In this document: positions 14,487 through 63,928 of the stretch, piece by piece
Layout: each line of letters opens with the position of its first letter
Position numbering within the stretch: the first letter of the stretch is position 1
Assembly (NCBI GenBank): GCA_918797485.1
Contig: CAKKNE010000003.1
Location: 2,480,001 to 2,544,000 of the forward strand
Reading direction: 5' to 3'
From: Pelagomonas calceolata
Taxonomy: Eukaryota
DNA length: 64,000 bases
The notes under the pieces: generated by a model
Database searches by the model: none
What the model was told of the DNA's origin: nothing
Seen by the model: only the letters and a program-made list of their open reading frames with translations
Translations under genes and position numbers: made by a program

Positions 14487-15511
14487 CTAGAGCCCCTCGA
14501 CGAGCAGCTTCACGAGCAGCGCCTTCTGCGCGTGCAGTCTGTTTTCCGCCTGGTCGAAGACGATGGATTGAGGACCATCAATAACACTGGCAAGTTGCTC
14601 CTCGCCTCGGACCGCGGGCAGGCAGTTCATGAAGCTCGCACTGGTAGATGCTTTGCTCATCAACTCCGGCGTGACCTGGAAGGGCATGAGCGCCTTCATC
14701 CTACGGTCCCGTTCGGCCCCCTTGATGCCGTACGACATCCACGAGTCCGCATACACGATATCCGCGCCAGCTACGGCCTCTTCCGCCGTTTTGAGCACCG
14801 TGACCGTGCCGCCGTGCTCCTTCGTCAGAGCCGCGCATTCCTCGAGCACCGAAGGCTCGATCTCCCACTCGAAGCCCGTCGGGCCCGCGATGCGCACGTC
14901 CAGGCCCATCAGCGCGCCGGACCGCATCAAATCGTAGGTCACGTTGTTCTGGCAGTCGCCCACAAACGCCAGAGACTTGCCCGTCAATCCTTCGACGTCT
15001 CCATCGCACTTGTGCTCGACGATCGTCTGTAGGTCCGCGAGCATCTGCATCGGGTGCGCATAATCATCAAGCGCGTTGATGATCGGGATCGTCGAGTTCT
15101 CCGCGAGGCCCGTGACCTGCTCCCGCGACTTGACGCGCGCCGTAACGGCGTCGCACATCCGGGAGAGGACCGCGCCCGTGTCTTCGTAGGACTCCTTCTC
15201 GCCCACCGGCGAGTCGCCGGTCATGTACGCGATGCCGTGCCCGCCCAGCGACGTCATGCCTGTGTGAATCGAGCACGTCGATGGCGTGGGGCGTCCGAGT
15301 TTTGATTTCCACACGGAGTCGCGCCCGCCTCGAGCGAGACGCGCGTGCGCAGCGAAGGCTTCTCGAAGAACATGAGCAGCGTCCGCCGCTTGAGCGCGTC
15401 CCAGTAGTCCGCCGGCCGGGCCTTCATCTCGAGGGCAAGCTTGAGGACGCCCTTGATCTCCTTGGGGGAGAGGCTGGAGATCTTGGTGACATGGCGCAGG
15501 GCGGGGGTCAT
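14487..15511 (-). CDS. argF: Ornithine carbamoyltransferase, 2 exons (15511-15325, 15259-14487)
   Basis: FEKPSLRTR, HPMQMLAD, NNV, D.WMS, CLP, QAENRLH; 65-nt GC-AG intron joins the frames. Confidence 0.93.
15260..15324 (-). mobile_element. Introner-type intron (GC-AG), degenerate
   Basis: TIR remnants CCGTGTGGAAATC / GATTCACACAG; flanking 8-mers GCGCGACT vs GCATGACG (5/8). Confidence 0.75.
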
Positions 15512-15624
15512 CTTGCGGCGCCGGTCTCAGGTGGCTGTGCAATGCTTTTTCTGCACGAATTGGAGCTTCTCGTCGCGGATCCCTTGAAGCAAAACGTACC
15601 AAGTCTGCGAGTGAGATGACGCTT

Positions 15625-15644
15625 GCTAGTGTCTCACAGCTAGC
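15625..15644 (+). promoter_or_regulatory. CTAG dyad element copy 1
   Basis: GCTAGTGTCTCACAGCTAGC in a divergent intergenic region. Confidence 0.6.
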
Positions 15645-15902
15645 TCCGAGGATCATTTTCAGAACTTTGAAGAACTCTCTTGCACCCGCGAGACCCTTTA
15701 CGGCAGGTACAAGGTCACCGCGTGCGAGCCCCTCGAAGCCCTGTTCAGAGAGCTTGGCTTTCAAAGCTAATTTACTACACCCTTGGCGCGTGATACCACG
15801 CAAGGATTGGTGGTTGAAAAGCAGTCCCGCTGTCCTATCAAGCTGTGCCATTCAAAGCTCGGCGTGATTTCGCGGCAGTGTGCCAAACACAGCATTCATA
15901 TC

Positions 15903-16951
15903 ATGGGCTGGATTTTAAACCTGTGGTGCGCGCTCGCATTCATCAGCAGTGCCGCCGCCCTGTCAGTGACGCGCGACGCCGCCGTCGTCGTCCCAGGATT
16001 TTTGGAGGGTGCAGCGGAATTCGTCGGCGTCGCGGAGGCGCTGCGGCGGCGCGGCATCGCGGCGACGGTGGCGCCGATCCACCGCTGGCACTGGATTCCG
16101 TGTTTGGGCGGCCGGTCCGTGCGACCGATCCTCGCGCGTATTGATCACGCTTGTGCTTACGCGACGACGGCCGAGGAATTGGACGTCGTCGCGCCATTTC
16201 CCGATTACTCGGCGGCAGATCTCGTCAGCGACTTCGTGAACAATCCCGGAGGCGTTTTGAAGGCCGGCGGCTCGGCAGATCCGGACGAGTTCCCGTACGT
16301 CGAGCCGCGCGGGAGCTTCGGCGCCTTCAACGGCCGCGAGCGGCGGCGCGGCTGCAGCATCGTCGGCCACAGCGCCGCGGGCTGGATCTCGCGCATCTAC
16401 CTGAGCGAGGAGAAGTACGGCGGCCACTCGCACCGCGGGCTGGCCCGGGGCGTCCGACGGCTCGTGACGCTGGGCTCTCCGCACGCCGCTTCGGACGGCG
16501 TCGCGTTTGCCAACGTGGCGTGGGCGCGGCGGCAGCCATCACCCGTCAAAGCTCTCGCGGTCGCGGGCGCCGGCTTTCGAGGCGACGACTCCGGATCATT
16601 CACGCGGGACTCGTACGAGTGAGTGACGCGGCGTCCATGCGACATGTCTTCTTGAGGCCATCAACGCGGCGCCATCGACGCGAGGCCATCGACGCGGCGC
16701 TATAGACGCGACGCCACCGCAGGTTCTGCGGCCTTTCCAAAGCAGAAGCGGCAACGGCCGACGGTGACGGCGTCACGCCGCTCAGCTCCGCCCTGGACTT
16801 CGAGGGCGCGGAACGGCTCACCCTCGCCGGAACGACGATCCACGCTGCGAAGCTGCCGTCGTTCCTGTCGCCCGAGCTCGCCGAATCCGACGCGCAGTGG
16901 TACGGCGACGAGGCGAGGATAGACGAGTGGGCTAGGTTTCTTGTGGACTAA
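15903..16951 (+). CDS. Alpha/beta hydrolase (PGAP1/lipase-like), 2 exons (15903-16618, 16723-16951)
   Basis: Signal peptide, VPGFL, GHSAAG, LVTLGSPH, GDGVTP; intron 16619-16722 GTGAGT...CGCAG. Confidence 0.85.
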
Positions 16952-16966
16952 TCATTTCACAAATTC

Positions 16967-18112
16967 TTAGAACACGACATAGCTCCCCGGATGACCCCAA
17001 TATTCGACGATGATGTCGCCGATCTCCGCGGGAACACGATGACCGACGATGCGCTGGACGATGGTCGTGAGAGCGCGCAGCTGGTCGCGCTCGTATTCCT
17101 CGTATGCAGCAAATCTGCAAGCACCGCGGCTCACTAATTTACCGCATTCTGCGCATCGCTTGCGGTGCTTGCTGATTTGCGGCTCACTAGTAATCAGGGC
17201 GTCGACTGAGCGAGCAAAACGATCGCGATCCTCGGAGGCAGTCTCGCCCGGGCGCACGAAAAACTGCGCGTCAACAGCTGCTTTGCGGATTCGGTTGAGA
17301 TATTCGACGTTGATGCACAGGGCGTCTCGGTCTATCGAGTAGAATGCCCAGTGCACACAGCACGGTTCGGCGCGGAACAACAAATGGAGCCCTCGGGGGC
17401 TCCCTTCGCACATCGCAGCCTCAACAACATCGCTAGTCAATTCTGCGCCCGCGGCGAGGAGGGTCTCGATGCATTTGGGGGTCTTGTTCTCCGCAGCGAA
17501 TTCCAGCGGCGCACAATCTTCGTTGTCTTTAGCATTAACGTCGCTACCGGCTGCGATGAGTAATTTACAGATGGCTACATTGTTATGGCGCGCCGCGTGG
17601 TGAAGTGCCGTCATGCCCTCGGCACTTTTCGCGTTCGGGTCGGCACCATGTTCTAGCAAGCTCGTCACCACGCTCGCACCGTGCTTAACATTTTCGACTG
17701 TGGCGTGGAACAGCGGCGTCCAATCGAGCCATTTGGACCGCGCATTTGGATCGGCGCCCGCCTCGAGCAACGCCACGACGAAGTCTAGGCGATCAGGAAC
17801 AGCATAATGCAACAGCGCACCGCGAGTCCGGCCTTCGCTCGCCGAGGCGATGCCTGGCCGTAAACGTAGCATATGTTTGAGCGCCTTGCGTCCGCGTGGC
17901 CATATTGACAACATTTCAATACATCTGCCATACTCTTGGTCGTCGAATTCTCTCAGGGCGCATCGCGCCAATCCCTGCATCGTCCGGCGGTCGTCCAATC
18001 CCCGCGGCGTCCAATCCCTGTTTTTGCGAATCTTATCCTTCAGAAATCTAACAATTGCTAAGCCTTTATTCTGCGAAATTTTCCGCCATTTATCCTTGAG
18101 AGAGCTCACCAT
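16967..18112 (-). CDS. Ankyrin-repeat protein
   Basis: LLEAGADPNA, TPLFHA, TALHHAA, LIAAGSDVNAKD repeats. Confidence 0.8.
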   Translation of the reverse strand: MVSSLKDKWRKISQNKGLAIVRFLKDKIRKNRDWTPRGLDDRRTMQGLARCALREFDDQEYGRCIEMLSIWPRGRKALKHMLRLRPGIASASEGRTRGALLHYAVPDRLDFVVALLEAGADPNARSKWLDWTPLFHATVENVKHGASVVTSLLEHGADPNAKSAEGMTALHHAARHNNVAICKLLIAAGSDVNAKDNEDCAPLEFAAENKTPKCIETLLAAGAELTSDVVEAAMCEGSPRGLHLLFRAEPCCVHWAFYSIDRDALCINVEYLNRIRKAAVDAQFFVRPGETASEDRDRFARSVDALITSEPQISKHRKRCAECGKLVSRGACRFAAYEEYERDQLRALTTIVQRIVGHRVPAEIGDIIVEYWGHPGSYVVF

Positions 18113-19357: not shown

Positions 19358-19816
19358 GTAGCTAGTGTTTTAATCGCGGCGGCGCAGGCGGTGTTCGTGG
19401 CTCGCGTCGCGGCGACGGCGTCGGGGCGGCGAGAGAGACGCGGCGACGGCGTCCAGAGGGCGTCATCCGATGTAGTAATGCCAGTGGATGAAGAAACATC
19501 AATTACGTCAAGGGGGGAAGGTAGTATAACCAGAATAGCAGGAAAGGAGAGGAAGGTATGTTCGCGCACCACTAGAGGTGCCACAGCAGCGGCCCGTGGC
19601 CGTGGATCGCCCGGCGCCCCGCATGGCCGACGTCCCTCGAAATGTCCTTCGCGAAGTGGCCGTCGGCGTTGAAGATGCGCAGGCGGCTCCACTCCGAGTC
19701 CACATCTAAATTCTGCCAGTCGACGTTCGCCAGCTTCTTCCGGAAGTAGGCGCTCAGGTCGCACTTTTGGTTTTTGCAGTCGCGCTCGTAACCCTGAAAT
19801 GTAGGTCGACTCACTT

Positions 19817-32300: not shown

Positions 32301-35300
32301 TTCTGCGGCTGGTCGTCGATCAGCGTACTCCGACGGGGGCAGAGCTCCCGGTGTCTCGCGCGCCACGCGTCGACGCGACTACCGAGCTGTCGTAGCTGCG
32401 CCAGCTCGTCGACCTTCGCGCCCAACCGCCGAGCTTGCGCGAGACACGACGATAATTGAAGAGCCGTGACACCTGACTCGTCCTCGTCGCCCGACTCCTG
32501 CTTCACCACCGCGTCGCTGTCGTCGCTGTCACTATCATTTGTGGTCGTGACCCAGAGTTTCACGTCGGTCGTCGCTTCGAGGTTGAGCTTCCGACGGACA
32601 TCTCGCGAGTTGTGGAGCCAGGCGCCGGCTTGCCTCGAGGCCGTCCGCAGCGGTCGTAGTTGGATCGTGCAGTCAATCGCCAACGCCTCGCCCTGGTCAA
32701 CTAGCTTCTTGAGCTGTGCGAGAGTAGGTGCCGCCATGAGCTTCTCGTGGGGGATCTCCGTCAGCCCGCCGGCACAAGTTGCCGGCTTGAGAGCTTTAGC
32801 ACGAGCGGCCCAGCTTTCAGCTTTCGCGAGTATTTCCCGCAATTGCGACTCTTCCTCGGACACGTGAGTGGCGTCCCGCGCCGCCTTCCGTATGGTCAAC
32901 GCCGTTAATTTCCGCCTTTGATTCTGATTCACATCTTCACTGTCAGAGTAATCTTCGGAAGACGAATCCGTATCCTCCGGAGGGGGAGGCTTCTTCTCAG
33001 CTAAGCGAGCCTTCTCCTCCTCCTGCTTGCGCTTCGCTTCGAGCAGGGCCTCCTTGCGGGCGTTCGACGCGGCCCGCCGGTCTTCCCCTTTTTGCACAGG
33101 GTCGACCTCCTCGACCTCGCCCCGCTTCTCCGGGTTTAAAATGACTTGAGGGTCCTCGTGCTGCTTCCGCGCGAGTTTGGCCAAGTCGTCCGTGGCACCC
33201 TTCCGCAGCTCGTCGAGCGACTCGAGGTGGTCCTTCGCGTCTTGAATACCTGTGTGTGGAAACGCGTCGCGCGCCGGCGAGGGAGCGTCGAGCGAGGTTT
33301 CGAGCCGTTTCGGACCACGCGACTCGTACGCCATCGACGCGACTCGCCAGAGGACACAGACAACATACCGGGCCGGATCACCTCGTCGTGGTCGCCCGGC
33401 TCCCGCACGGAACACGCCACGAGCGCGCCGCGCGCCTCCCGGACCCACTGCAGGAAGCGATGGCGCCGACTACAGGCCGTCAGGGCTCTTCTAGGAGCTG
33501 GTACATCTTCTGCGGCATCCACGAGTCGACCCAATGATGCGTAGTCATCAGCATCACCCTCATAGACGCTAAGAGCTTGCTCCGTCCACTTGTCGGCCTT
33601 GGCGACCTGTTCTTGCAAGGTGACACCCATGGGTCCCACACCACATTTTATTTCTGTCAATTGCGCCAACAAACGTCTTGCCTTCGTCGGGGCCTTTTTC
33701 GCATGAGGATCGGTCAAGATACGTCGGGCATCCTTCGCCCACTGCTCCGCGGCATCACAAAGGGAATCGAGCTCTCTCCGAGCTTCTAACTTAACACCAA
33801 CGAAGTCCCGGCACCGTTCTCGTAACTCTTTCAAAGTTTGGAGGTTAGGTGTGGTCACGCCATCTAAAGCTCTAGAAAGCTCCCTATCTAGGTCACGCGC
33901 GTCTTGCGCCCGCTCCTCGAGCTGCTCACACAACTCACCTTCAACGAACGGCATCGCGCGGCCCCGCTGCGCCAATCCGAGTAACTGCCCCGGCGCGATC
34001 TGCCGCGCGGGCGCGCCCTGGCCCTCTAACGAATCATGAGCTTTCCGTCGCCAGGCCGACGCCGCTCGCAAACAAGCCGCTAAAGGCCTTAAAGCATCGT
34101 CATCTCGTATACAATGCTGCTTCAACTGCCGCAGACACGCCTCGGCGTCCTCGAGGGGCAGCGTCGGCTCCCGTTCCGACATGGCGCCCAGCCCCGCAAC
34201 GACGTCCTCTTCAGGCTCTTCTTCTACTGCGGAGCCAGTAGACAGGCCGCGCGCGCCGCTCCGAGACACGCCGACGCCCGCGGCCACGATCTCGTTCGCC
34301 GTCTGCTTGGGCGTGCCGTCGGCGTTCGTGCGAGCGTAGACGGAATACCCAAATCCTCGAGCGTCATACGCGGCCGAGGCCTCGTCCGCACTCCCGCGAG
34401 CCACACAATCTCTAGCTCTCGCTGATAATAAGCGACATCTAGCCACATGCCTCCAAATTTCATCCAGTCTTTCCTTCAGCAGCGACACGGGATCCTCGCC
34501 GGTACCACCGATCGACGGCGGACAGTCCGGCAGGTCTTCCGCCTCCCTCAAGATAGCGACACATTCGGCCAAAGTCGGCCGTTGATCATTCTTCGCGACC
34601 GGCACAACATCGTCATCATCATCCGAACTTTCCTGGGCCTTCTTCCGGCGCTTCTTGGACGGCGGTTCCTTCGCGGGTTCCTTTTCCGCTTTCGGCTGGT
34701 GCCGCTGCGCGCGCTGGCAGAGCTGGTCGGCCTTCTGTTCTAAGTCGCGCCAGCGCTGGGCCGCGTCGGCCCGGCCCAGGCCGCGGCCTCGCCGTTCTAA
34801 GCGTCGTCGACCCTCCTGCTCTTGTTCGTCGTCACTACTGGAGTCTTTCTTGTCCTCCTCTTCATTATTGCCGTTCTCGGCGCGTTGTTGAGCTTCGGCA
34901 GCTTTCCGGGCCTCCTCGTCGGCCTTGAGCTTGGCCTCGCGCTCCCTGCGCTTGAACTCCTCGACCCGAGCTTGCCCCGCGGCGACGCCCGACTTTCTTT
35001 TCGTTAAATCGGGGGGCACCATATAACGTCGAGATCGCTTCGACCTCGGTTTTGTACTAACGCCGGCCATGAAGCCGGGGAGTGCCGCGAACAATCTAGT
35101 TTCTCGGGTAGGGGGTCTCGCGGGATCGAACAGTTGCGCCGCCAAGGGCCGAGACCCGACGCAGGACGGTGTCGCTCCCTGGGCCGCGGCTCGCAACACG
35201 AGCTTTCGTTGCTGGTCGAAGCGCTTGCGAGCACCGGCTTCGGCAGCAGCACCCAAGCCAGACGTCATCGCGTAGGCGGCCCGTCGCGCGTTGCCGCCAT

Positions 35301-39548: not shown

Positions 39549-39563
39549 TAATTTTAACAAGTT

Positions 39564-40483
39564 TTATTCCCCACCGGTGGGCGACTTCTTCTTCTTTTTC
39601 TTCTTCTTCTTTTCGGAACCAGTCGGCGACAGCGCGTCGCCCGCGTCGCCCTTGGACCTCTTCTTTTTCTTCTTTTTCTTCTCGGAACCCGTCGCATCGC
39701 TCTTCCGCTTCTTCGTCGGCGCGGAAGTCACGACGCCCGGCGGCGCGGAGCCGTCGCGCGGCTCGCGCGTGGCGTTGGGAAAGAAGCGCGCCCTGATGTC
39801 CCGCGGCTGGAGCTTGCCGTTGTAGGCACTCCGCGACCTGTGTGGAAATCAACCAGTGAGTTAGGTTACTCCACGTCATCGATCTGCCGCAGTTATTTGG
39901 ACGACGTCGCGTCGATGGCGTAGAAACTCCACGCCATCGAGCAGATGCCATTACCAGGGCGACGTCCCGTCGATGGCGGGGGGCGTCCGAAATTTGATCT
40001 CCACACAGCCCGCGACCAGATCGGGTGCACGTAGCCCGTCTTCTCGGCGAAGTCCTTGCCGAGCAATTCCTCGCCGATCGGATCCTGGGACCAGACGCTC
40101 TCGACGGCCGGTGCGACGATGCTAGGGACGTATTTCGCGGCGTCCATTTCCGTCGTGGCCGGGTCGTGCTCCACCGCTAATGATAATTGCCTTGATACGG
40201 GCACGCCCGCACACCTCAAAGAGCCGCTCCGCGTCTTCACGAGGGGCCGCATGTCGTCCGCGAGCGCGGACTCCTCCCGAATCACGATGTCGCCGCCGAA
40301 GGCGCGGCCCACGGGCCCGCCGTGGTCTCGGGCCGCGCCCGGCGCCCTCGCTACAACATCACCGACGTTGCCCTGCTCCTTCGCGATCGGGAGGTTGTTG
40401 ACCGCATCGAGTGAGATGCTCGACGGGACGCGGAGGAGCCAGATCTCCTTGTTCGGGTCTTCGATCGTCTTTTGTTTGACCAT
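39564..40483 (-). CDS. RNA polymerase I subunit RPA34/PAF49-like, 2 exons (40483-40017, 39837-39564)
   Basis: KEIWLLRVP near the N-terminus and a poly-Lys C-terminus (two TGSEKKKK repeats); intron removal restores the frame. Confidence 0.6.
39838..40016 (-). mobile_element. Introner intron (TIR + 8-bp TSD)
   Basis: CTGTGTGGAGATCAA...TTGATTTCCACACAG; TSD GTCGCGGG/GTCGCGGA; CTAAC branch-point candidate. Confidence 0.9.
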
Positions 40484-44349: not shown

Positions 44350-46293
44350 TTACGAGGTGAGCCGCACGGGAGCGTGTACCACAGGCGAGCCCTTCCCTTG
44401 CGGCGCCGCCTGGGCGTGCGACGGCACGCGCGCCGGGAACGCTACGGGCGACGGGACGCCGTGCTCGGAGACCTGTGTGGACGACGACCGGTGAGTCGCG
44501 CGGAACGACGCAGACGCCGAGTCGGTGCCTCCTCGTCGTCGGGCAATAATATATGCGTCCGCACCTGCGTCCCGTGCGGCGTCGGCGTCAATTCCAAGAC
44601 GGCGCCCGCCGGCAACGGTAAATAAGGGATAGCCTCGGCGTCGGTACCCGTAAAATAAGAATACAAGCACCTTTGGACGGCCAGATGCGTCACCAGTAGT
44701 ACAGATTTGCGTTGGCGCTCCAATTCAATGAGGATAGGTCTCAACCTGTTGATGACGTCCAGGTACGACTCCCCACCGGCGCCCGGGTATCGGAACCGCA
44801 GCTTGTCGGCCATGCGTCGGTGCCAGACCGCCGGGTACCTATCTTGAATCTCCTTGACGCTCAGTCCATCAAAGTCGCCGCCACACAACTCATTTAATAG
44901 AGACGACGTCGACACGCGCGGCGCCGCCTCGAACGCTAGAGGATCGGCCAGCAGCGGCTTTATCGTTTGAGAATGGATGGGCGCATTACCGGTCAAGACG
45001 ACGATCTCGGGGTCCGTATCTACATGCTCTTCTCGGAAGGAAGCATGCGCGTCTTTCACGAAAGAAGCTAATCTTCTGGCAAAACACCGCCCGCGCGGCG
45101 TGAGGTGCCCCGTAGCGGCGCCGACTCTTCTAGACTCTACTTGCAGCTGACTTTCACCATGTAATGCCAACCAAATCCGCCTCGGCTGGATGTGCACGTT
45201 GCCCAGGTAGAAGCCCAACTGAGAAGTGAGATAACCGCCGCACCGTCTTGTTATAACTTTATCACCGACATTCACGAGCTTGATGTAGGCGCACTCCTCG
45301 GCATCATCTACCGGTTCATACCTAGCTTCATACTGCTTCACGCGTTCCATGAAGTCGGCCATGGCCTTCTTCGGGTCCGTGCCCCGGTAGTCGGCCTGCG
45401 GGGGACCGCGGTGGCGGCGCGGCGGTGGGCGTACTCTCGCGGCGAGGCGTCTCGTGCCACCCCATACGCTATCGCCGCGACCCGACACGCACACGCAACA
45501 GAGTTGACGGCCGCGCGACGCGACGAGGACGCCGCGCGCGCACGTTCTGAAGCTTCATCTCGTAGTTCCGCGAGAGCACCTTCGGGTCGTCGCAGATGCT
45601 CTCCACAAACACTATACTCACATCGTTGCCACTTTCATCACTCTCGGCCTTGCATCTCTCTGTTAACAAGTGTCGCCGATGTCGCGTCGTATTGGTAGCG
45701 TCGAAGATGGCCACACAAGCGCCCTTCTGGGCCCGCAGCCAGTCGTACATCTCCTCCTGGCACTGCAGCGCGAGGCCCTCTCGGACGGCCATCGCCTCTG
45801 GCGTGTCGGCGAAGTACTCGGCCTTGGCGCCGGCCTGGCCCTGCTTTCGTCGTAGTTCGCCCACATTAAATATTTTCGTGGGGAAGCCGACCCAACTCAG
45901 ATATCTTACTAACATTTTGACGAGATAACTTTTACCTCTAGCTGGTAGGCCGACCATGGCCACGACCAATTTGACTCTACTACCTAAAGTGCCGCCCGCA
46001 TAATCCGTGGTCGACGCTTGTGCGAGGGCCTTGGACTCGACCATCAACCTTAAAGATCGCTCGCTCTTTTCTCGATCCATGCTTCTCGCTTCATGTCTTG
46101 TGGCTAACGAAGAAGGCGTAATGCCGTAGAAGCTAGACGCCGTGCTCTCGTCGAGCTTCGTGCTGTCGTCCAGGCTCTTCGGCGTTTCGTCTTCGTCGTT
46201 GCTGAGGTACTTGCTGGTTGTTTTATAAGCGACGGCGAAGGCGGCGCCGGCCAGGGCCGCTACCGTTACTGTTTTTGCCGGCTGCGCGGCCAT
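44350..46293 (-). CDS. PFKFB: 6-phosphofructo-2-kinase/fructose-2,6-bisphosphatase; intron 45396-45543 and a probable second intron ending at 44473
   Basis: MVGLPARGKS, IFDATNTT, FVESIC, LHGES, GGESYLD; the donor of the last intron is ambiguous (44564 GT or 44528 GC). Confidence 0.9.
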
Positions 46294-46803: not shown

Positions 46804-47526
46804 ATGCTCCTCACGTCGCTGCTCCGGCGACACCTCCTCGGCATGGGACTGACCGCATCCGCCCTCTCTACCGCCCCCGCGGCCAAGGGCGCTATTCGCT
46901 ATCGGCAGCTCTGGGTAAGTGCCGACGGCGTTACTCATATCGACGAGCACGAATGCGGTAAACTAGAGACGAAGGACTTCACGTCGACGGGCGGCGACGC
47001 CGCGCTGCCCGAATCGGCGTCCTTTCGGCCCCCACGCCAGCGACGCGACGCGTGCCTCACACAGGCAATACGTGCGCGCCTTCTCTGACTCCGACGATTT
47101 CGCTCTCACGGGCTTAGTGGTCACGCAACAAGTAGGAGAAAACCCGTGGCACTTCTGCCCTTCGCCGCAGTTCGTCGTGACGCTCAAGGGCAGCTGGTAC
47201 ATCCGGACGAGCGACGGCAAGACCACAACATTTAAACCGGGCGACGTCTTGTACCGTGTGGAAATCAAATTTCGGAGGCCCCACGTCGACGTAGCTGCAT
47301 CTGCTCGATGGCGTTCAGGTTGGATAACCTAACTTACTGGTCGATTTCCACACAGGTCTTATATCAAGACAACTCCGCGGAACACCCATTGGCCAAACTC
47401 GGAGCGAGAGGCCAGGCCCCGAGCGGCGCGCAGCACTGGTCCGGAGCCAACGGCGGGCCCTGCAACCAGCTCGTCCTCGGCGTGAAGCCCAAGATATTCC
47501 CTGCATCAAAACCCGGAACTTGGTAA
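46804..47526 (+). CDS. Cupin-fold protein, 3 exons (intron 1 ends at 47064, intron 2 47246-47355)
   Basis: DGVTH; PWHFCPSPQFVVTLKG...TSDG...FKPGDVLYQDN...HWS. Confidence 0.75.
47246..47355 (+). mobile_element. Introner intron (TIR + 8-bp TSD)
   Basis: GTCTTGTA-CCGTGTGGAAATCAA...TCGATTTCCACACAG-GTCTTATA. Confidence 0.9.
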
Positions 47527-49764: not shown

Positions 49765-49962
49765 TCAGTTTCTCCTTGCGTGACCACAGCCGTATTGAGC
49801 GCGCTACTCACTATTGGTGGGCGACGCGAGAGAATATCTGCATTTCGTCGGGGCAGATTCGCTGCACCACCGAAACGCTGCCATTCGCAACTCCTGTGGC
49901 TGCTCTCCCGCCTCCCAGCTTCTCAGAGCCCAAGCGCGGTCGCTGTTCAGGATTATACAACA

Positions 49963-50367
49963 ATGACGCTCACGCACGTCGTCCTGCTGAAGTGGAAGCC
50001 CGGCACACCGGACAGCGCCGTCGAGCCGGGCCTGAAGAAGCTCGAGCAAATACCGCTCACCGAGACGTACATTTTGAGCTACCGCATCGGCAAGGACTTG
50101 TGTGTAGGCAGGACGAAGATGAATCATGATGTGGCGGTGGTCGCCGAGTTCGCGACGGAGGACGACTACCACCGCTACGCGACTGCTGGAAAACACCTCG
50201 ACGCCGTGGACTTGCTCAAGCCGCACCTGATGCATCGCCACGCGGTGCAGACGCACGCGAGGGAGTGGGCGACGCCCTGCTCGCAGCGGACGACGCCGTC
50301 CAATAAACGCGTCTTCGCCGCGCTGGTGTGCGGCGTCGTGCTCGGGCGCTTGCTCGCGCGCCGGTGA
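49963..50367 (+). CDS. Dabb (stress-responsive A/B barrel) protein with a C-terminal anchor
   Basis: HVVLLKWK...G.D...HD.AVVAEF...DY..Y....H. Confidence 0.8.
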   Translation: MTLTHVVLLKWKPGTPDSAVEPGLKKLEQIPLTETYILSYRIGKDLCVGRTKMNHDVAVVAEFATEDDYHRYATAGKHLDAVDLLKPHLMHRHAVQTHAREWATPCSQRTTPSNKRVFAALVCGVVLGRLLARR

Positions 50368-50462
50368 CAGCGCGACCTTTATGCAACCCGCACGGAACCG
50401 GGCAGGCTTCACTCCGTTCAACTTGGCCGGGTTTTCCCCCTCCGTGCACACTAACACTAAAT

Positions 50463-52338
50463 TTAATCTCCTCCACCCCACGGCCGGGGCACGGGCATGC
50501 CGTCGGCGTCGATCTCGTTCATGCGCCTTACACCAGCAAGGCCCGCGTCGATTATCGCCTTGTTCACCGCGAGCGCGGCGGCCTCCTGATCATCAAAATA
50601 GCCGATGTGGCGCTTGACGGTGTTCGCATCATTATAAGTCGCCCGCCACTGCTTGCTCTGCTTGCGCGCCCAGGTCACGCCCCAGTACTTGGACTGTTGG
50701 GCCGCCGTCGGATCTCTGAGAGGGGGCTTCAGGGCCAGTTTCCCGTCGACGACCGGATTCACCTTGCGCACGCCTTCCAAGCCCGCCTCGCGAATCGCAT
50801 CATTATAGGCGTAGGCCGCCTCCTCCTCGTTCCCATAACGACCTACGCTCTTTCTTTTCCCATCACCATCGGTATACTGCGCCCGCCAGACCCTTCCTTT
50901 TCTATCCCACGTGACGCCCCAGTACTTGCTGACACCGTATTTCGTCACCGCGAGGGGATCAGGCGCTATGACCGACGCCTTGGCCCGCCGATGCGGCGCG
51001 CCCGGCGGCACGAGCACACCATGCTCGTCCACCGCATTCATCCGACGTCTACCCTCCAGGCCCGCGTCGAGCACCGCCTTGTTACGCGCGTAGGCCGCCT
51101 CGCGCTCGTCGTCGTACCGACCTATGGTTCGATCCTTGCCATCTAACTCGTTGAGAGTGACTTTCCACTTCCTCCTTTTTTCATCCCAGGCCACGCCCAC
51201 GAAACGACTCACCCTTTTAGCCCAGTCCTCGATGTCGTCTGAAGTGGCTTCTGAAGGCTCCTCCACGTCCTCCTCTTGAAGGGCCTCCGCGAGCTCCCGC
51301 CGTAACCGATCGACTTCCGATTCTACGACAGGGTCGCACCGTTGTGCGATGTATTGCGCAGATTCTGAGAGGGCGTCCTCGGCCTCCCTGTGTGGCACGG
51401 ACACCGTCGCGAAACTGTCTCCGTGCACTCGCGAGCGATGCGGCATCGCGACGGACGCTGCGTCAGCACCTGAGGAACTTGGGGAAGAGCATAAAGTCGT
51501 GGAACATCTCCTCGTAGGTTTTGTGTGTGACTTCTGTGCCGGAGGCTTTCGCTGTTAGTGCTAGCGTCAAGGCATCAACATGCAACGTTTCCTGCTCTCC
51601 ACTTAGTATCATCATATCGTCGACGCCGGACGCGGTCAGAGCGAAGGCGTGGCGCGCGTCATTTTGTTCGTCGTTCACGTGTCTTGCCGGTTGTAACGAC
51701 GAAACGTCCAGAAAATCGCCGTCCGAAGATAATGACCGTTGCACATCCTTCGTCGGGTGATGCAGCAGGTAGGGGCACCAGAGCAGCACGCCCGCTGGTT
51801 TACTTGAGAGTTGTTGCGCCGCCCTTAGTGCTAAGTAAGCGCCGGCGGAATCACCAGCTAGCACGATCGGACCGGTCAGTTCATTGTACTGCCCGACGAC
51901 GTCGTTTACTGCATCAGCAATAGTGAACTCGGGCGCTCTTCTATATTTCGGCAATAAAGCCGTACACCCACCGGGCACGCGCGCGATCAGCGAAGCGACG
52001 GCTCCGCGATACGCGTGCGGGCTGCCCGCAAAGAAACCGCCGCCGTGGACAAAACAAATAGTGGCCTTCGATTCACTATCTCTAGGCGCGATGCGCACTC
52101 CACCATAGTCCGTCGTCGTCGCCTCGTGCGTGCTCCCTAAATGGGGGCAGCGCGCGTTGCCCCGTTCCATCAGCTCCTCGAAGAGCGTGCGGTTCCGCTC
52201 GACGTCGCCGCCGGCCCACCAGGGCGTCTTGCGGATGGCGTTTAGCAGTTGTTTTACGACGGGTCTCTGTTGTTTTTGTTCCGGTGGTGCCGTGCTGCTG
52301 CGGCGCAGGCTTTGGGCTAGCGCGCGGCGCAGCATCAT
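50463..52338 (-). CDS. HSL-family alpha/beta hydrolase fused to three AP2 domains, 2 exons (52338-51470, 51387-50463)
   Basis: HGGG, GDSAG, E, MFHDF; predicted intron 51388-51469 supplies the missing helix REAEDALSESAQYI in frame with 3x (Y/F).GV.W...W...G.(Y/F)..E.EAA.A.N. Confidence 0.75.
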
Positions 52339-52598
52339 TGGCTTCAGCAGCAGCGCGTGTGGCAGCACTGATCAGCAATGTGGGTGCTGGATGAATCAGT
52401 CTTCGTCGCGTTCGCCTTACGCGCTGCTGCGAGCCGTCACTGCCAGCACAAGCCCTGGTGCTTTGCTGATGCGAACAGGTTCCCGCGCAGCGCTTCGTTG
52501 GCGCAAGCCAACTCAATAATCAGTCGAATGCAATAGTTAACGTAGGCTCAACGCAACTATGCGAGCCGCTGGGACGAGTTTTGTCGGCTGAAGTGCTT

Positions 52599-52621
52599 GC
52601 TAGTGTGTTTACAACGCTAGC
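52599..52621 (+). promoter_or_regulatory. CTAG dyad element copy 13
   Basis: GCTAGTGTGTTTACAACGCTAGC, divergent intergenic. Confidence 0.65.
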
Positions 52622-52961
52622 GGAAAAAAAAGTGCCGACGACGGCACCGAGCGGCTGGCTCCTCATACCCACAGCGCTTGGATCTGAGAAAGCCCTCGAG
52701 CCACGCAAGGCTGCGCGTCGACGCCGAAGCGCCTCCGACTTGCGCACGGCTGCTGACCGGAACACGCCTGACCACCCGCAGCGGTAAAATAGCCGCGCGG
52801 AGAGCGCGCCATCGACGCGGGCCTCGAGGGCCGTCGTAGACTAAACGCCGTCGACGCCCGGGGTAGAATAAACGCCGTCGACGCGCGCGCATCGCCGCGC
52901 CGAGTCGCCGGTCGCAACCATTTGGCCCCGCACGCGCCAGCGAAGGGCGTTAAGCGCCGAC

Positions 52962-55391
52962 ATGTCCGAGCCCTACGCGCGCAAGGGCGGCGGCACGGCC
53001 CATGGCCGGACGCCCTACCGCCAAGTTTCGCAAGATGACACTGATGGTAGTGGCGTCAGAAGAGCAAGGCTCGCGACGTGGTCCAAGCTCCCCGAATCCC
53101 TCAACTTCACCACAGAAGAAAATGAAGTCTGGCGCACGAAGCACGCCCAGCTCCAGTACACGAACCGAAATAGGTGGTGGACGTCGCACAACGCCGTCGT
53201 GTTCAAACGGTGGGTCCTGACGTTTATTATTGGCGTCCTGGCTGGCTTAGTTGGTACATTTATTACGTTCTTCACTCGTAAACTAACCGACTACAAGTTC
53301 GAGAAAGTGCGACGCGTCATGGATGCGGAGGACGAGGGTACCTACCGAGGCTCTTCGTTCTTCTGCTACCTCGGCTTTAACTTATTATACGTCTCTGTCG
53401 CTATACTATGTGTATATATAGAACCGGTATCCGCCGGCTCAGGAATCCCGGAGGTGAAATGTTACCTTAATGGTATAAATGTACCTCGTATAGTACGAGT
53501 ACGCACCTTGTTCTGCAAGGCCTTTGGCGTACTCTTTAGTGTAGCCGCAGCGCTACCCGTGGGCAAGGAGGGCCCCATGATCCACTCTGGGAGTGTTATT
53601 GGTGCTTCACTGGCCCAAGGCACTAGAGGCCTGTTCGGTACATTGGGTGATACGCGAGTCTTAGAGTTTCGCAGTGACCCGGAAAAGCGGGACTTCGTCG
53701 CTTGTGGGGCCGCAGCAGGCGTCGCCACGGCCTTTGGGGCGCCGATTGGGGGTGTTCTGTTCGCCCTGGAGGAAGGCGCAAGCTTCTGGTCGACACAACT
53801 AACGTGGCGCGCGTTTTTTTGTGGCATGATCACGATCTATACGTTATATGTCGTACGGACATCGGAGGACCTGTGGGGCAGCGCCGACTCGACGAAGATG
53901 TTTTCCTTTGGCGAGTTCACTTATAAAACGTCAGACGGCAAGGCCAATTTCAGTGTGTGGGAGTTGTTGCTGTTCACGGCGCTGGGGGCGCTGGGCGGCC
54001 TGGCCGGGGCGCTGTTCAACCATTTGAACAAGCGACTGACGCAGTGGCGCATGCGGCACTGCGCGTCGAAGGCGCTGCGAGCTTTGGAAGCCTGGGCCGT
54101 CTGCGTCGTCTGCAGCACGGTCATGTACGTCGTGCCCTGCCTCTGGCGGCGGTGCACCCCCAAGCCGCTCGTACAAGTCACGTGGACGCAGTTCGAGAAA
54201 AACTTGGTCGAAGATTTAGTTCCGTTTGGCTGTCCCGCGGATTCCTACAACGAGGTGGCTTCGTTGTTTTTCACGGACTCCGACACGGCCATCAAGCAGC
54301 TGTTCCACTTTCGGGAGTCGGGCGTCTTCAATCAGGACGTCCAGACTTTTAGTTCATTAGCCATTGCTACCTTCTATGTACCTTATTTCTTGTGCGCGTG
54401 CCTGACGTATGGCATCGCCGTGCCCTCGGGCTTATTCGTACCTTCACTGTTGGGAGGAGCTGCTCTAGGTAGACTCGTCGGGCACCTCCTCCACCGATTA
54501 GACGCGCAGTCGGGCACCTTCGCGGACGCCGGCACGTATGCGCTCGTGGGAGCCGCCGCGGGCCTCGGCGGCATGGCGCGGATGACCATATCATTATGTG
54601 TTATTTTGCTCGAAGCGACGGGCAACATCTCGAACCTATTGCCATTAATGCTGGCGCTGATGGCGGCGCGCTGGGTCGGCAACGTTTTTAATGAAGGGTT
54701 GTATGATGTACATATCCACTTGAAGAAGATGCCGATTCTTGAGGAGGAGGTACCTGCTGCCGCTGCAGAGAGAACCGCGCACGCGGCCCAGGTCATGGCA
54801 GCGGACCCGGTCTGCTTCGCGCCTCTGGTCACGGTGGGCGACGCGTACGACGTCCTACGAAGCTGTCGGCACGCGTGCTTTCCCGTCGTCGCCGGCGGTG
54901 GCTCGACACAGCTCGCTGGTACGGTTTTACGTTCAACAATATGCATGCTCATCCAGCACCGGGCCTTCGGCGCGCCGGGCGACGACCCTACCTCGAGAAA
55001 TGACTTACGAACAAGAGCTCTCTCCCCGTTACTCTCGTCCGCGGTCTTCGAGCGGGCCTATCCGAGGTTCCCGACCGTCGATGAGTTAGACGTCTCGGAG
55101 ACCGATAGAGGGTGCTGGCTCGACTTGCGACCTTATGCCGACACGGGACCGGTGACGATCCAAGACTGCGCGTCGATACAGCGCACATATAGAGTCTTCC
55201 GCACGCTGGGGCTGCGCCATTTAGTCGTCGTCGACGCGGGCAATAAAGTGCGCGGCATCATCACGCGCAAGGACCTCGACCACCACACGCTTGAAGAAAG
55301 ATTAGCGTGGGCCGCGAACGAGGCCGAGAACCTCGAGAGCTTCTCGGTGGAAGCGCACCCGTCGACGATGGCGCGCTTCAGCGTCGCGTGA
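52962..55391 (+). CDS. CLC chloride/proton antiporter (CLC-6/7-like) with CBS domains
   Basis: GSGIPE, GKEGP, GLFVP, RMTIS, C-terminal CBS (GLRHL.VV...GIITRKDL). Confidence 0.95.
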   Translation: MSEPYARKGGGTAHGRTPYRQVSQDDTDGSGVRRARLATWSKLPESLNFTTEENEVWRTKHAQLQYTNRNRWWTSHNAVVFKRWVLTFIIGVLAGLVGTFITFFTRKLTDYKFEKVRRVMDAEDEGTYRGSSFFCYLGFNLLYVSVAILCVYIEPVSAGSGIPEVKCYLNGINVPRIVRVRTLFCKAFGVLFSVAAALPVGKEGPMIHSGSVIGASLAQGTRGLFGTLGDTRVLEFRSDPEKRDFVACGAAAGVATAFGAPIGGVLFALEEGASFWSTQLTWRAFFCGMITIYTLYVVRTSEDLWGSADSTKMFSFGEFTYKTSDGKANFSVWELLLFTALGALGGLAGALFNHLNKRLTQWRMRHCASKALRALEAWAVCVVCSTVMYVVPCLWRRCTPKPLVQVTWTQFEKNLVEDLVPFGCPADSYNEVASLFFTDSDTAIKQLFHFRESGVFNQDVQTFSSLAIATFYVPYFLCACLTYGIAVPSGLFVPSLLGGAALGRLVGHLLHRLDAQSGTFADAGTYALVGAAAGLGGMARMTISLCVILLEATGNISNLLPLMLALMAARWVGNVFNEGLYDVHIHLKKMPILEEEVPAAAAERTAHAAQVMAADPVCFAPLVTVGDAYDVLRSCRHACFPVVAGGGSTQLAGTVLRSTICMLIQHRAFGAPGDDPTSRNDLRTRALSPLLSSAVFERAYPRFPTVDELDVSETDRGCWLDLRPYADTGPVTIQDCASIQRTYRVFRTLGLRHLVVVDAGNKVRGIITRKDLDHHTLEERLAWAANEAENLESFSVEAHPSTMARFSVA

Positions 55392-55492
55392 GGAGTAAGG
55401 GGCTATCTATGTGAATTTCTAGAGTGGGTACCTAGTCACGGTGTGGAAAACTTACTGCGCTCCACAGGGGTAAACAAAAGCATGGAGGAGGT

Positions 55493-57357
55493 CTAGTATA
55501 GTTGCTGCTGCATCGAAAGGGCCGCGCGCGCAGATTGGTGCACGACGGTGGTGGTGTGATGATGGTGGTGGTGCACGACTATGGGGGCGGGCGGGGCGCT
55601 CGGCGGCGCCGTCACGATCTCTTTCACGTACTCGTACCGGCGCCGCTGGCAGATGGAATCGAGCCACACGCGGAAGGGCCAGGTGAGCAGCAGCAGGTTC
55701 GCGACCCAGTACCAGCCCGTCGAGGCGTATTTCGGCTTCGCCCCCGGGTACATCTCGACCTGTGTGGAAAACAAGTGAGTCAGGTTATCCAGTGACAACG
55801 TCGCCTCGATGGCGTGGACATCGCACAGACGCAACTACGGAAGCACGTCGCGTCGATGGCGTGGGGCGCCCTATATTTGATTTCCACACACATTCCTACC
55901 AAAAGCCGCTCCCGGAACTCGGGGAGCTCGAAATCTTGGGAGAAGTCGAAGTGTCGGTCCCGCCGATGGTGGCGGATGAAGCGCCGCTTGTACATGCCAA
56001 AATGCTGGCGCGTATAGTCGTCGCCGAACGTCCAGCGCTTGCCGAACTCGACCTTGGCGAGCAGCGTCGCCGGCCAGCGGTTGTAGGCGTCGCCGCCGCT
56101 GTCACGCACCCAGGAGTACTGGTACACGTGCGACGCCGCGTGCGTGTTCACGCGCACCTCCTTCGACCGCCGCACGCGCCGCTCGCGCCCGTGCTGGTCC
56201 TTAACTGTTTCCCACCAGTGATGCGTCTCGAAGTGGTAGCACTGGATTTTGAGCTTGATGATCGGGCGCGAGCGTTTCACCTGTTCGATGTGAGGCTTCA
56301 GCGCAGAGTCGCGCGTGAGGTTCCACAGGAATTTATGCGTGTCGGAGAAGCACAGGCACTCGGCGACGTAACAGACCAGCAGGATCCAGAACGCGTTATC
56401 CGACGCGTCTTCCTCGCGGCCATAGCTTCTCATGTTCCAAAAGTCAGCGCATTTCCCTTGGTACAGCCACGTCGCATTGCAGAAGGGCAGCGGCACGACT
56501 ATGATGAGTATGAGCACTGTCAGGGTGAGCGACTTCAAATGCGGGCTTTGGCCGCAACCGGGGCCACAACCGGCGCCTTGTTCGACTTGCTCCGCGACGG
56601 CCACGGCTTCGGCGGGCTGGCCCTCCGGGACGAGTGCTGGCTGCTCCACGTAGGCGGGCGGCGCGTCGTCGGCGGGTTTTCCGACACCGACGCCCGGCTC
56701 CACCACCATGCCCTCAGGCGTTGCGTCCTCGTCTTCCGTATTGAGGAACGCCGGTGTCGCGTAGGCGAACGCCTCTGTATCCGTAAACATCGGCTCCCAC
56801 GGGGGCGCGGACGGCGTCGGCGCCGGCTCGGGCGCCGGCGGCGCGCTCGGCGTTTCTGCAGGTAGCAAGGGATTGGCAATGGTAGTAGTGGCCTCGATGT
56901 CGGAAACAACAGGGACGGCGTCTGGCGCTTCGGCCAAGGTCCGGCCCGCCCAATGGCCGCTCTCCTTCGCGCAGACGCAGCCGACGATGCCGACCATCGC
57001 CGAGCACACGAGGTATATAATTATGAGCGTGCACAGGCCATCATATTCGTCCATGTACGTCGCCTCCGTGGATCCCGGGGCATAGCAGCAGCCCGTCACC
57101 ATAGTCACTCCCGGCCCACACTTATCCGGTGCGCTACACGCCCACGCCAGGTCGGTCTCGTAGGAGAATCCGTCGCTGCAATAGCCGGTGCCGGGGCACG
57201 CGCAGCAGATGCTCTGGCCTTTGCTGCTCTGGCCTTGCGCCCGGCACGCCTGGTCGTCGCGCTCGCGCGTGGGGTCGCAGCGGTCGTCTGTGAGCTTGGT
57301 GTAGGCATTGGCGTAGGCTAGGGACAGCAGGAGCCATAAGGCAGGGGCTGCCTTCAT
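55493..57357 (-). CDS. TMEM151-like membrane protein with a Cys-rich ectodomain, 2 exons (57357-55900, 55759-55493)
   Basis: Signal peptide; IQCYHFE...VNTH...; WYW...LLLLTWPFR; intron removal joins the frames. Confidence 0.75.
55760..55899 (-). mobile_element. Introner intron (degenerate TSD)
   Basis: GTAGGAAT-GTGTGTGGAAATCAA...TTGTTTTCCACACAG-GTCGAGAT. Confidence 0.85.
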
Positions 57358-61250: not shown

Positions 61251-61356
61251 TGTGTAAGTTGGTTATGTACCTGCGGGTTCAGGTTGCTTTTTTTCCTGTG
61301 AACTCGCGACCGATTCCAGTGAATTAGCGGCGTGTTTCGCTACAAGAGATCGCTAG

Positions 61357-62144
61357 CTACGTACTCAACGTCAATTTGTTCCCGCCGCGATTTGCAAGGG
61401 CGCGGCGAGGCGTTTCGAGTGCGTTTTTGTTGCTGCACATAGATACAACGGCGCCGGCTGGGACGATGACGGATTTAGATTCGACGATAGCTACTGCAAT
61501 AATGATCGAACGTATTACCTCTGCGAGGCGTGCCCGGCGGGGCGGTCCAAGCTCGCGGGTTTCGAAGTCGGCGGGTACGGAACGGACAATTACTACTGTA
61601 AGCTTTGCGCCGCGGGCAAGTTCTCGGTCCCGGGCCAACGTACGTGCACGCCCTGCGAGAAGGGCAGGCACGCCAGTGGCCAGGAGAACACAAACTGTGC
61701 GCTCTGCGCGCCGGGCAAGATCGCCAAAAACTCGCAGACTTCGGACTGTGAAGATTGCCCCAAGGGCCAGGAGTCGAACGCAGGTCACGATGGCTGCAAG
61801 CCTTGCGACGACGGCTACAAATCATCGAGCGCTGGCACTATGTGCACCGCGTGCGACGCGGGCCAGGAGTCGAACACAGGTCGCGATGGCTGCAAGCCTT
61901 GCGACGACGGCTACAAATCATCGAGCGCGGGCACTACGTGCACCGCGTGCGACGCTGGCCGACCCGCGTACCTACGCGCGGATCGACGCCCGGACCAACG
62001 GCGCCTACGGCCGCGCCTACGACTGGGCCGACGGCAGCGCCGACTGTAGGATCTACAACGCCCGGACCGACGCCTGGGCCGACGTCCGTGCCTACATCCA
62101 CGCCGAGCGCCGGGCCTACGTCGTCGCCGACGCCAGCGCCGTAG
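61357..62144 (+). pseudogene. Cys-rich (CxxCPxG repeat) + PT-repeat surface-protein fragment
   Basis: Frame open from 61357 with no ATG before the Cys repeats; frameshift near 61960 into PTAAPT repeats. Confidence 0.6.
61765..61956 (+). repeat. Two near-identical 96-bp tandem units
   Basis: GGCCAGGAGTCGAAC...GCGTGCGACGC at 61765 and 61861. Confidence 0.9.
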
Positions 62145-62440
62145 TGGTGCATGGCGAAGGCGTTACGGCGTCGTAGACGCGCGCCCCAAAAGAAGGCGTC
62201 TACAACAACGGCAACGCCGCCCTTGCTACATGACCGCCCGATCTCCGGACGCGAACAAGCGCGCGTTGACGCCCCCATCCCTTCTCGGCCGCTCGACGGA
62301 CGACGCAACGACGCTAGCGACGGTACGTGCTCACGAAGGAGCGCGGATCACGCGTCGTCCTCCCCTGTTCAGACGTTCCACCTTTCCTTGCGAATGTGTA
62401 ACGTATCTTGATGGGAACAACTAGTATATTTTCAAATTTC

Positions 62441-63928
62441 TTAGTCTGTCAGGTTCAGCAAGGCTGCAACCCCAGCCAACACCCACGTGTCGGGGTCGAC
62501 GGCGGTAGGCAGCTCCACCGCCACCACGAAGTTCGTCGACATACCTGTCGTCGACAATACACCTTTCCGGACCGCCGTCTTGTAGATGGGGCAGGCGTAC
62601 GACGTCGGCGCGATGACGTGGCCGACCGCCGGGATGAAGTGCACGATCGGCAGCGGCGTGTACATCTCACCCAAGACCGAATCGACGACCATCGCCGCAT
62701 CGGGATCCCACTTCGCGCCCTCGAGCATCATGCCACTACACAACACGCCGTCCTCGGGGTGTTCCTGGGGCTCCTCGAAGCCGCAGATCCCAAACTTGAA
62801 CGACAACGTATCAATTGCCACCATGTACTTGCGCGCGAAGGTCTGCAAAGTGCCGGTCATGAACCCTTGCGGGAAGAAGAAGACGGGCAGCGGGAAGCTC
62901 ACGGGCAGGCCGTTGACGAGCCAGGTGCGCATGAACTCGATGCGCGACAGGGCGTCCTTCATCCACGACCCGAGCGTCTTCATCGTCGCGAAACTTACTT
63001 TCTCCCAGATGGGCGGCAGCTGGTTGTTCATCAACCCGACGTACATGTCGTCTAGGTCTGAAGACATGATGGCCAGCCCCCCGATCGCTCGTCTCAACAA
63101 ACTAAGGGACGAAGACATGTTCGTCATGAGTCGGTTGAACTTGACCATTTCCTGCATCAATACGGTGTCCAGCGACGTCAACAAGCCGTTGTCCTGGATC
63201 ACGAAGGTCGTGGGGCCTTTATCATCTTCATCCAACCTGTGTGGAAATCAAAATTTTACGGCGCGTTCGTGCTGAATCGTCGCGTCGTCCTCCACGCCAT
63301 CGGCGCGACGCCTGCTCGACGGCGTGGCGATGCCGGCGCCCCACCGCTCGACCGAGCCAGGATGGCCGCGTCGTCGCCGAGAAATGACTTAGCACCCGAC
63401 GCACTGGTTGATTTCCACACAGCATCCAACAGCGCGGGCATGCGCTCCTCAGCATCGTCAATAACATCAATAACGATCTCATCTGAAGATTTCCCGCCGC
63501 CGCCACCGCCTTCGCGCGGTTGTAGCGCCAGAATCGAGGACATGAGCGTACTGCTTTCCGCGCGATTGAAAGTTATATTGGCATTTTCATGCATGCCAAA
63601 TATTTCAGGTTCATCTATTTGTGGCAAGGAGGAAAAATAATCCGTGTGTTCCTGCAAGGGTCCGACTGAAGCGGGCTTGTACAGTCCCGACCGCGAGAAA
63701 CTATGAGGCTTGTACGCGCCGTCCTCCTGGACCATGATCGCCTCATTAAAGTATATACTGAGGATAGTGACGATACATCTCCTATCCCAATCATCTGTAA
63801 CTCTACCACCGTAGTTGATATGCCCCGTAATAAATCGCAGCGCGTCCCACGGTATCGACTCCTGCTCGTCCAAGAACCTCCTCATGACATTTATAGACGT
63901 CTCCAGATCGCTCTCGTCGAAGGCATAC
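62441..63928 (-). CDS. Dynein heavy chain (axonemal-type) 3' end; continues beyond the window; introns 63237-63430 and 63929->64000
   Basis: INYGGRVTDDWDRR, PEIFGMHENA, FFFPQGF.TG.LQ, Y.CPIYKT..R.G.LSTTG.STNFV. Confidence 0.95.
63237..63430 (-). mobile_element. Intact introner intron: perfect 15-bp TIR, perfect 8-bp TSD
   Basis: CATCCAAC-CTGTGTGGAAATCAA...TTGATTTCCACACAG-CATCCAAC on the + strand. Confidence 0.95.

Follow-up and report, generated by a model that had tools for sequence, protein, structure and literature searches.

Target site duplications as donors and terminal inverted repeats as acceptors in introns of Pelagomonas calceolata

How can an element inserted into a coding sequence leave the mRNA at its original length? 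The question is raised by a 64,000-nucleotide stretch of the Pelagomonas calceolata genome (the window), in which five introns share a terminal inverted repeat (TIR). All five lie where a preliminary description of the sequence had placed them. As described there, the donor GT or GC precedes the TIR on the donor side by exactly 8 nt in 5/5 copies, at the first base of the target site duplication (TSD), and the intron 3′ end is the AG of the TIR, again in 5/5. The 15-mer TIR had 9 matches in the window at no more than 2 mismatches (shuffled sequences: mean 0.06, maximum 2). The TIR is not identical among the copies: the tenth TIR end, on the 3′ side of copy 1, has decayed to 8/15 matching positions, and the donor side begins CC in copies 1 and 3 and GT in copy 4.

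Copy 1 is a 65-nt GC-AG intron in the ornithine carbamoyltransferase (OTC) gene on the minus strand (15260..15324; element 15260-15316, intronic TSD 15317-15324, exonic TSD 15252-15259, 5/8 identical). Copy 2, also on the minus strand, is a 179-nt GT-AG intron (39838..40016; element 39838-40008, TSD 40009-40016 and 39830-39837, 7/8) in a gene whose Pfam match to RPA34.5 is weak and sub-threshold. Copy 3 lies on the plus strand in a small uncharacterised gene and is a 110-nt GT-AG intron (47246..47355; TSD 47246-47253 and 47356-47363, 7/8; element 47254-47355). The 140-nt GT-AG intron of copy 4, on the minus strand (55760..55899; element 55760-55891, TSD 55892-55899 and 55752-55759, 5/8), is in a gene with no Pfam match. 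Copy 5 is a predicted 194-nt GT-AG intron of a dynein heavy chain gene on the minus strand (63237..63430). Its element (63237-63422) is reversed relative to the branch-point end and is flanked by a perfect TSD (63423-63430 and 63229-63236). Copy 5 is a deletion derivative of a 203-bp type and matches 12 metagenome loci at 88-97%. An 8-bp TSD, claimed earlier for all five copies, is well supported in copies 2, 3 and 5 and weak in copies 1 and 4. Since two random 8-mers that start with GT or GC (GY) match at 7 or more positions with a probability of 0.005 but at 5 or more with a probability of 0.14, copies 1 and 4 are no proof of a TSD by themselves. All five intron lengths are of the form 3n+2; this was taken as chance, because 58 full elements split 10/26/22 over 3n, 3n+1 and 3n+2.

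Splicing was examined in poly(A) reads from four runs of one sample, which cover copies 1 to 4. Skips of 65, 179, 110 and 140 nt were observed at copies 1 to 4, with 236, 48, 92 and 116 reads, respectively; for copies 2 to 4 the joints were judged from the best 15 of 72. Exactly one TSD plus the element was removed in 4/4 RNA-tested copies, leaving mRNA length unchanged, which supports the predicted junctions at these copies. Homologs of OTC and dynein likewise need no added residues. The spacing at the copy 1 site was unchanged in 114/120 OTC homologs, the remaining 6 being without the upstream motif, and the distance across copy 5 was +0 in six close dyneins. This homolog spacing fits removal of copy 5 without added residues.

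These data also bear on a different donor, the GT at TIR positions 5 and 6. With that donor, both splice sites would lie in the element and 12 nt would stay in the mRNA (8 from the TSD and 4 from the TIR, or four residues). Such a donor exists in 5/5 copies and is in frame in every one, so the reading frame cannot separate it from the TSD donor, and the pattern is known in a related alga, Aureococcus sp. (Gozashti 2022, Fig. 2F, PMC9860276). However, it predicts skips of 53, 167, 98 and 128 nt, 12 nt short of those observed (at copies 2 to 4, among the best 15 of 72 joints). At copy 1, no 53-nt skip occurs in the complete table of 11 joints, and 0/114 OTC homologs carry extra residues at the site. 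A generally usable TIR donor would also make GY in the duplications needless, and GY was found in all of the well-preserved duplications described below. The TIR-internal donor is refuted as the main form at copies 1 to 4, and as a general account it is very improbable; minor use of an alternative donor may occur at copies 2 to 4.

The element family was present at unrelated sites in 61/120 metagenome loci, and these loci overlap the window only within the element, not in its host genes; no empty site was seen among them. Among 58 full elements, flanking identity peaked sharply at a duplication length of 8 bp (mean, 0.81, versus 0.18 to 0.34 at other lengths from 2 to 12), and the 8-bp duplication was perfect in 26. 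At least 7/8 positions agreed in 35/53 metagenome elements, and all 35 duplications were distinct. GY stood at one end of the duplication in 35/35 (background, 0.304; p = 8e-19), in the forward sense only in 15, in the reverse sense only in 13 and in both in 7. Together with the reversed copy 5, the 15 forward-only and 13 reverse-only metagenome copies suggest that introns are made in both orientations. The modal element length was 203 bp (13/58), about one nucleosome repeat.

Two further readings concern what these duplications mean. The GY rule could be a target preference of the transposase rather than the result of selection by splicing. GY at both ends in 7/35 duplications would suit such a preference, and no clearly intergenic copy was seen for comparison; against it, GY is at one end only in 28/35. 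In these 28 metagenome copies, moreover, the GY end predicts which TIR keeps its AG: the AG at the acceptor end was intact in 28/28, versus 19/28 at the other end, where the equivalent T of the donor side was changed in 9/28 (Fisher p = 0.002). This association fits sense-strand splicing as the filter, although the asymmetry could partly come from master elements with unequal ends, and we regard a target preference as unlikely. Spread as RNA via reverse splicing, a route put forward for fungal introner-like elements, might be suggested by poly(A) RNA rich in TIR-bearing reads from other loci (in run X21, coverage at 39841 is about 1,400 reads and the loose ends are mixed). However, the first 8 nt of the intron are locus specific and recur in the exon that follows, which means that the unit being copied is not the intron RNA. 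These locus-specific duplications and the occurrence of both orientations exclude reverse splicing, to which we give next to no probability.

Insertion as DNA, with splicing from the TSD GT or GC to the TIR AG, is thus the preferred reading. The copies are almost certainly short TIR elements with 8-bp duplications. Splicing of this kind was seen in four of the five, and the copies are likely non-autonomous DNA transposons whose transposase is encoded elsewhere, since about 203 bp is too short for a transposase. The absence of a transposase from the window, noted previously, was upheld, as all 132 open frames 140 aa or longer lacked a match to a Pfam transposase family. Nor was a transposase found in 120 of 350 frames from loci carrying the family or in the part of the published annotation table examined. 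The long TIR-bounded, transposase-encoding element suggested as a follow-up did not emerge: none up to 6 kb with a duplication was found among the matches listed for 120 metagenome loci, many of them short. In viral contigs, the element was present in 0/120 loci bearing the 15-mer, and neither of two longer end patterns had a match. The single match in prokaryote genomes is terminal on a MAG contig of 2.7 kb and is probably eukaryotic carry-over.

The hAT consensus for the TIR start has A as its second base and G as its fifth, and 8-bp duplications, a hAT trait present here, are also made by other superfamilies. The TIR consensus starts CTGTG and thus lacks the A at position 2; CAGTG was found on the donor side in 2/28 copies. 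A search of the literature on "hATv" gave nothing relevant among the matches listed. A hAT assignment is not made from the evidence here; the label comes from the published fam2 table (PMC12130899).

The window also contains a likely sixth, decayed copy that the preliminary description had missed. This 119-nt GT-AG intron on the minus strand (33250..33368) has TIR remnants at both ends and the internal motif, and it connects two PLU-1/PHD frames. Other introns resemble the element in part. A 56-nt GC-AG intron on the minus strand (44473..44528) has a 3′ end like the element's branch-point end (11/15), its TSD being gone. Possible eroded copies with the internal motif are a 58-nt GC-AG intron in copy 3's host gene (47007..47064, plus strand) and GT-AG introns of 215 nt (6971..7185, plus strand, with an element-like 3′ end, 11/15), 193 nt (707..899, plus strand, motif four times), 99 nt (9506..9604, minus strand, three times) and 104 nt (16619..16722, plus strand, twice). 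These introns hint that many ordinary introns of the window are eroded element copies. That most Pelagomonas introns, beyond recognisable introners, derive from earlier waves of the same TIR lineage is a tentative idea that we hold to be rather doubtful. If true, every stage of decay would be on view in the window, from an intact copy to an intron of ordinary appearance, and selection would have favoured changes in the first two bases of the donor-side TIR, which free the acceptor AG from pairing within the TIR hairpin. In a hand count, donor-side TIR position 2 was changed in 6/20, versus 6/60 at other T positions (p = 0.06); the raw excess was inflated because the search pattern allowed C there, and the excess is a lead only. 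For the intronic TSD copy, "donor maturation" was unsupported (better in 7 cases, worse in 3 and equal in 13; p = 0.34).

We propose that a cut-and-paste transposase, most likely hAT-like, would insert the element of about 203 bp or a deletion derivative and duplicate 8 bp. The sequence shows that the TIR is symmetric and so supplies an AG at the element's 3′ end in either orientation. The spliceosome then takes out one duplicate with the element and brings back the pre-insertion mRNA length, as the RNA shows for four copies. Exonic insertions whose sense-strand target lacks an initial GT or GC would be purged, which would account for the GY rule. Later, the intronic duplicate and donor-side TIR erode while the acceptor AG stays, as the pattern among copies shows. 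The window offers a clean, RNA-checked case of the one-step conversion of a DNA transposon into a harmless intron, and such conversion is the leading account of recent algal intron gain. Gene predictors can be misled by the OTC GC donor and the in-frame decoy donor within the TIR.

The mechanism, with a TSD donor and a TIR acceptor, is already published for P. calceolata and relatives, and because both it and the P. calceolata elements are in print, the value of the present analysis is confirmatory, with small additions in the sixth decayed copy and the hint of eroded copies among ordinary introns. The earlier statement that non-autonomous TIR/TSD introners are known in pelagophytes was correct but understated, the same architecture having been catalogued in P. 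calceolata itself. Guerin et al. (2022, PMC9481584, Supplementary Note 3) listed 956 putative introner elements with GT and GC donors, an AG acceptor and a TIR, and the intron length peak near 210 bp corresponds to 203 + 8. In Gozashti et al. (2025, PMC12130899, file sd07), fam2 of P. calceolata comprises 340 copies of 202 bp, described as "co-opt 5′, carry 3′", with 281 GT and 42 GC donors and the label TIR DNA / hAT. The window copies show no difference of substance from these elements. They are identified with fam2, as probable members, from the species (the OTC protein of the window is that of P. calceolata), the length and the mechanism; fam1 and fam5 of the same table may hold copies of the same TIR too. 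No occurrence of the TIR string was found in the published supplements searched, which include part of those of PMC12130899.

Comparable elements occur in other algae. Aureococcus sp. family 4 (Gozashti et al. 2022, PMC9860276, Fig. 2F) shares with the window copies a pelagophyte host, a TIR and an 8-bp TSD, but both of its splice sites lie in the element and 12 nt are added to the mRNA, whereas the RNA-tested window copies add none. Classes 6, 8 and 10 of the introner-like elements (ILEs) of Polarella glacialis (10.1101/2020.10.14.339549) also take the donor from an 8-nt TSD in both orientations; the host is a dinoflagellate, GA donors are allowed, and the likeness is one of architecture. Metagenome locus L045 is Aureococcus-like (its nitrate reductase is 93-100% identical to A. 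anophagefferens models in long ungapped blocks) and has the same TIR, 8-bp duplication and length (203-207 bp), although in their interior the Aureococcus-type copies belong to another subfamily than the window's. As described in 10.1101/2020.10.14.339549 and PMC10228655, the A. anophagefferens introners of Huff, Zilberman and Roy (2016) carry one splice site, take the other from the TSD and occur in either orientation, and in all three respects the window copies are like them.

All five introns of the preliminary description (copies 1 to 5: 15260-15324, 39838-40016, 47246-47355, 55760-55899, and 63237-63430; only copy 3 lies on the forward strand) were present in the window sequence. The 15-base terminal inverted repeat (TIR) matched nine sites in the window with at most two mismatches (0.06 expected), and a tenth TIR end, on the 3′ side of copy 1, is eroded. 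As proposed, each copy, read on the gene strand, starts with GT or GC and carries the TIR from base 9; its last bases are the AG of the opposite TIR. An 8-bp target site duplication (TSD) had been claimed for all five. Comparison of the first 8 intron bases with the next-exon start gave 5, 7, 7, 5, and 8 matches for copies 1 to 5, respectively; seven or more matches, as in copies 2, 3, and 5, are rare by chance (0.005), and five or more, as in copies 1 and 4, are compatible with chance (0.14). Excision of each interval left an open frame. Copy 1 interrupts an ornithine carbamoyltransferase (OTC) gene and copy 5 a dynein heavy chain gene; no Pfam family scored above the cutoff in the hosts of copies 2 to 4. 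The element has a branch-point-like end, located at the 3′ end in copies 1 to 4 and reversed in copy 5. In folding of copies 2 to 5 the two TIRs paired, which would bury the acceptor.

The TIR contains a GT of its own at positions 5 and 6 in all five copies. Splicing from this donor would leave 12 nt (8 + 4) in the mRNA, the pattern depicted in Fig. 2F of Gozashti 2022. This +12 form is equally in frame, so that reading frame does not separate it from splicing at the TSD donor, which leaves mRNA length unchanged (+0), and the choice between them called for RNA data. For regions 1-17000 and 39000-57000, which hold copies 1 to 4, these came from four stranded poly(A) runs of a single sample. Reads skipped 65 nt at copy 1 (236 reads), 179 nt at copy 2 (48 reads), 110 nt at copy 3 (92 reads), and 140 nt at copy 4 (116 reads). 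Each of these skips corresponds to the duplication plus the element, confirming exact restoration and the predicted junctions at four of the five sites. For copy 1, with the weaker GC donor, the complete joint table (11 rows) contains no 53-nt skip. Minor use of an alternative donor is possible at copies 2 to 4, for which 15 of 72 joints were listed. The TIRs were also covered by poly(A) reads from many other loci with mixed flanks, showing that the family is genome-wide, although copy number is not derivable from this pile-up. At 39858-39929, 441 to 521 first-mate-plus reads per run derive from another locus with a TIR-bearing copy abundant in poly(A) RNA, suggesting that the copy is retained, or sits in an untranslated region, in a gene with high expression.

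Protein homologs were compared at copies 1 and 5. The OTC exon downstream of copy 1 is 100% identical to a protein labeled Pelagomonas calceolata, and 114 of 120 homologs have the spacing of the spliced form with no extra residue; the upstream motif is missing in the other 6. For dynein, aligning both exons to one PDB chain gives the +0 distance between them, and this holds for six close chains (8j07_g5, 9fqr_Xz, 9d2f_T, 8glv_Fm, 9y6s_7C, and 9e5c_6c). In two further chains, 9y6s_6t and 8glv_Kg, the distance falls 4 residues short of +0, and neither therefore favors insertion. The dynein result gives the pre-insertion spacing and not the in vivo junction of copy 5. Two metagenome OTC proteins with 96 to 98% identity to that of the window (P0002 and P0004) open with the first methionine downstream of copy 1, the start that a shared intron would predict; their source may be DNA or RNA. 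A third (P0003, 91%) continues across the site.

A metagenome scan for the TIR returned at least 120 loci; by profile search, the family was present in 61 of the 120 listed and in none of 120 viral loci. In a set of 58 full elements (53 from metagenomes and 5 from the window), the flanking duplication peaked at 8 bp and modal length was 203 bp. At least 7 of 8 duplication positions matched in 35 of the 53 metagenome elements, and the 18 with weaker duplications were excluded from the following count. The 35 duplications were all distinct. Against a background of 0.304, GT or GC stood at one end of every duplication, in the forward direction only for 15, in the reverse only for 13, and in both for 7. 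The predicted acceptor AG was intact in all 28 orientable copies, and the same position on the donor side was altered in 9 (P = 0.002). In the window, donor-side TIR base 1 or 2 was changed in three of five copies; a bias-corrected test for excess change at donor-side TIR position 2 was not significant (P = 0.06). At two metagenome loci (L067, 414-421, and L084, element 301-383), the TIR is preceded by identical 8 bases that are not duplicated, and a GT lies one base further in; the donor may be shifted, or the element may extend further. A second interior type of element was found mostly on contigs of about 0.7 GC. One such locus, L045, encodes a nitrate reductase matching Aureococcus anophagefferens models at 93 to 100% in long ungapped blocks, indicating that the TIR is common to these pelagophytes; the spacing of its homologs also fits removal from the TSD donor.

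The inserts combine a TIR, an 8-bp duplication that provides the donor, a TIR that provides the acceptor, exact restoration at four copies, both DNA orientations, and asymmetric decay. A cut-and-paste transposase supplied in trans would insert the element, and selection would account for the GT or GC at the duplication end. As described, no transposase was found in the window (132 frames), and the 120 frames covered of the 350 at family loci also gave none. The element ends do not fit the terminal consensus of the hAT superfamily. In the available part of the published P. calceolata annotation table, "transposase" appears for one Tc1-like gene only and the hAT dimerization accession has zero occurrences.

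A sixth, decayed copy is predicted at 33250-33368, with TIR remnants at both ends, joining two PLU-1/PHD frames. When scored with a family profile built from metagenome copies only, seven of eight other RNA-confirmed introns (in the 35 kb with RNA) scored above 199 or more of 200 non-intron windows of equal length. The internal motif of the element was present in five of these eight introns, and it occurred 11 times in 1,464 bases of 12 introns (copies 1 to 4 included) versus 3 times in 33,536 other bases. Because scores were low (0 to 11 bits) and the control windows do not share generic splice signals with introns, descent of ordinary introns from the element lineage is a lead and not a result. 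A dispersed motif akin to the internal one (8437, 14396-14432, 19390-19421, 19948, 37939, and 45466) lies mostly near gene ends and once within intron 45396-45543, which has no TIR, no duplication, and no score against the family profile. Another motif, about 28 bases long (GCTAGC ... CACTAG), recurs on both strands, mostly in intergenic DNA or just upstream of genes (21373, 37757, 40737, 42076, 49764, 52621, and 59956; also near 15630, 24144, and 46546); it may be a promoter element or be left over from a different small repeat. Two GTP cyclohydrolase II frames lie near each other (10819-12456 and 13666-14355), one fused to DHBP synthase.

By mode of action and by these tests, the five inserts are real pelagophyte TIR introners; the first interpretation was correct, with RNA confirmation at four of five sites, and such elements are already known. 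Such introners are indeed in print for both P. calceolata and A. anophagefferens. Excerpts of Guerin 2022 (PMC9481584) give an intron length peak near 210 bp in P. calceolata and count 956 putative introner elements there, which have a TIR, donors of both the GT and the GC type, and an AG acceptor. The tabulated data of Gozashti 2025 (PMC12130899) divide the P. calceolata introners into 11 families. One of these, fam2, has 340 copies, a length of 202 bp, the mode "co-opt 5′ carry 3′", and the label hAT, a label that comes from the literature and not from the ends of the window element. For A. anophagefferens introners, one splice site carried and one recruited, in either orientation, is called already reported in sections of 10.1101/2020.10.14.339549, and a passage of the review PMC10228655 credits this pattern to Huff 2016.
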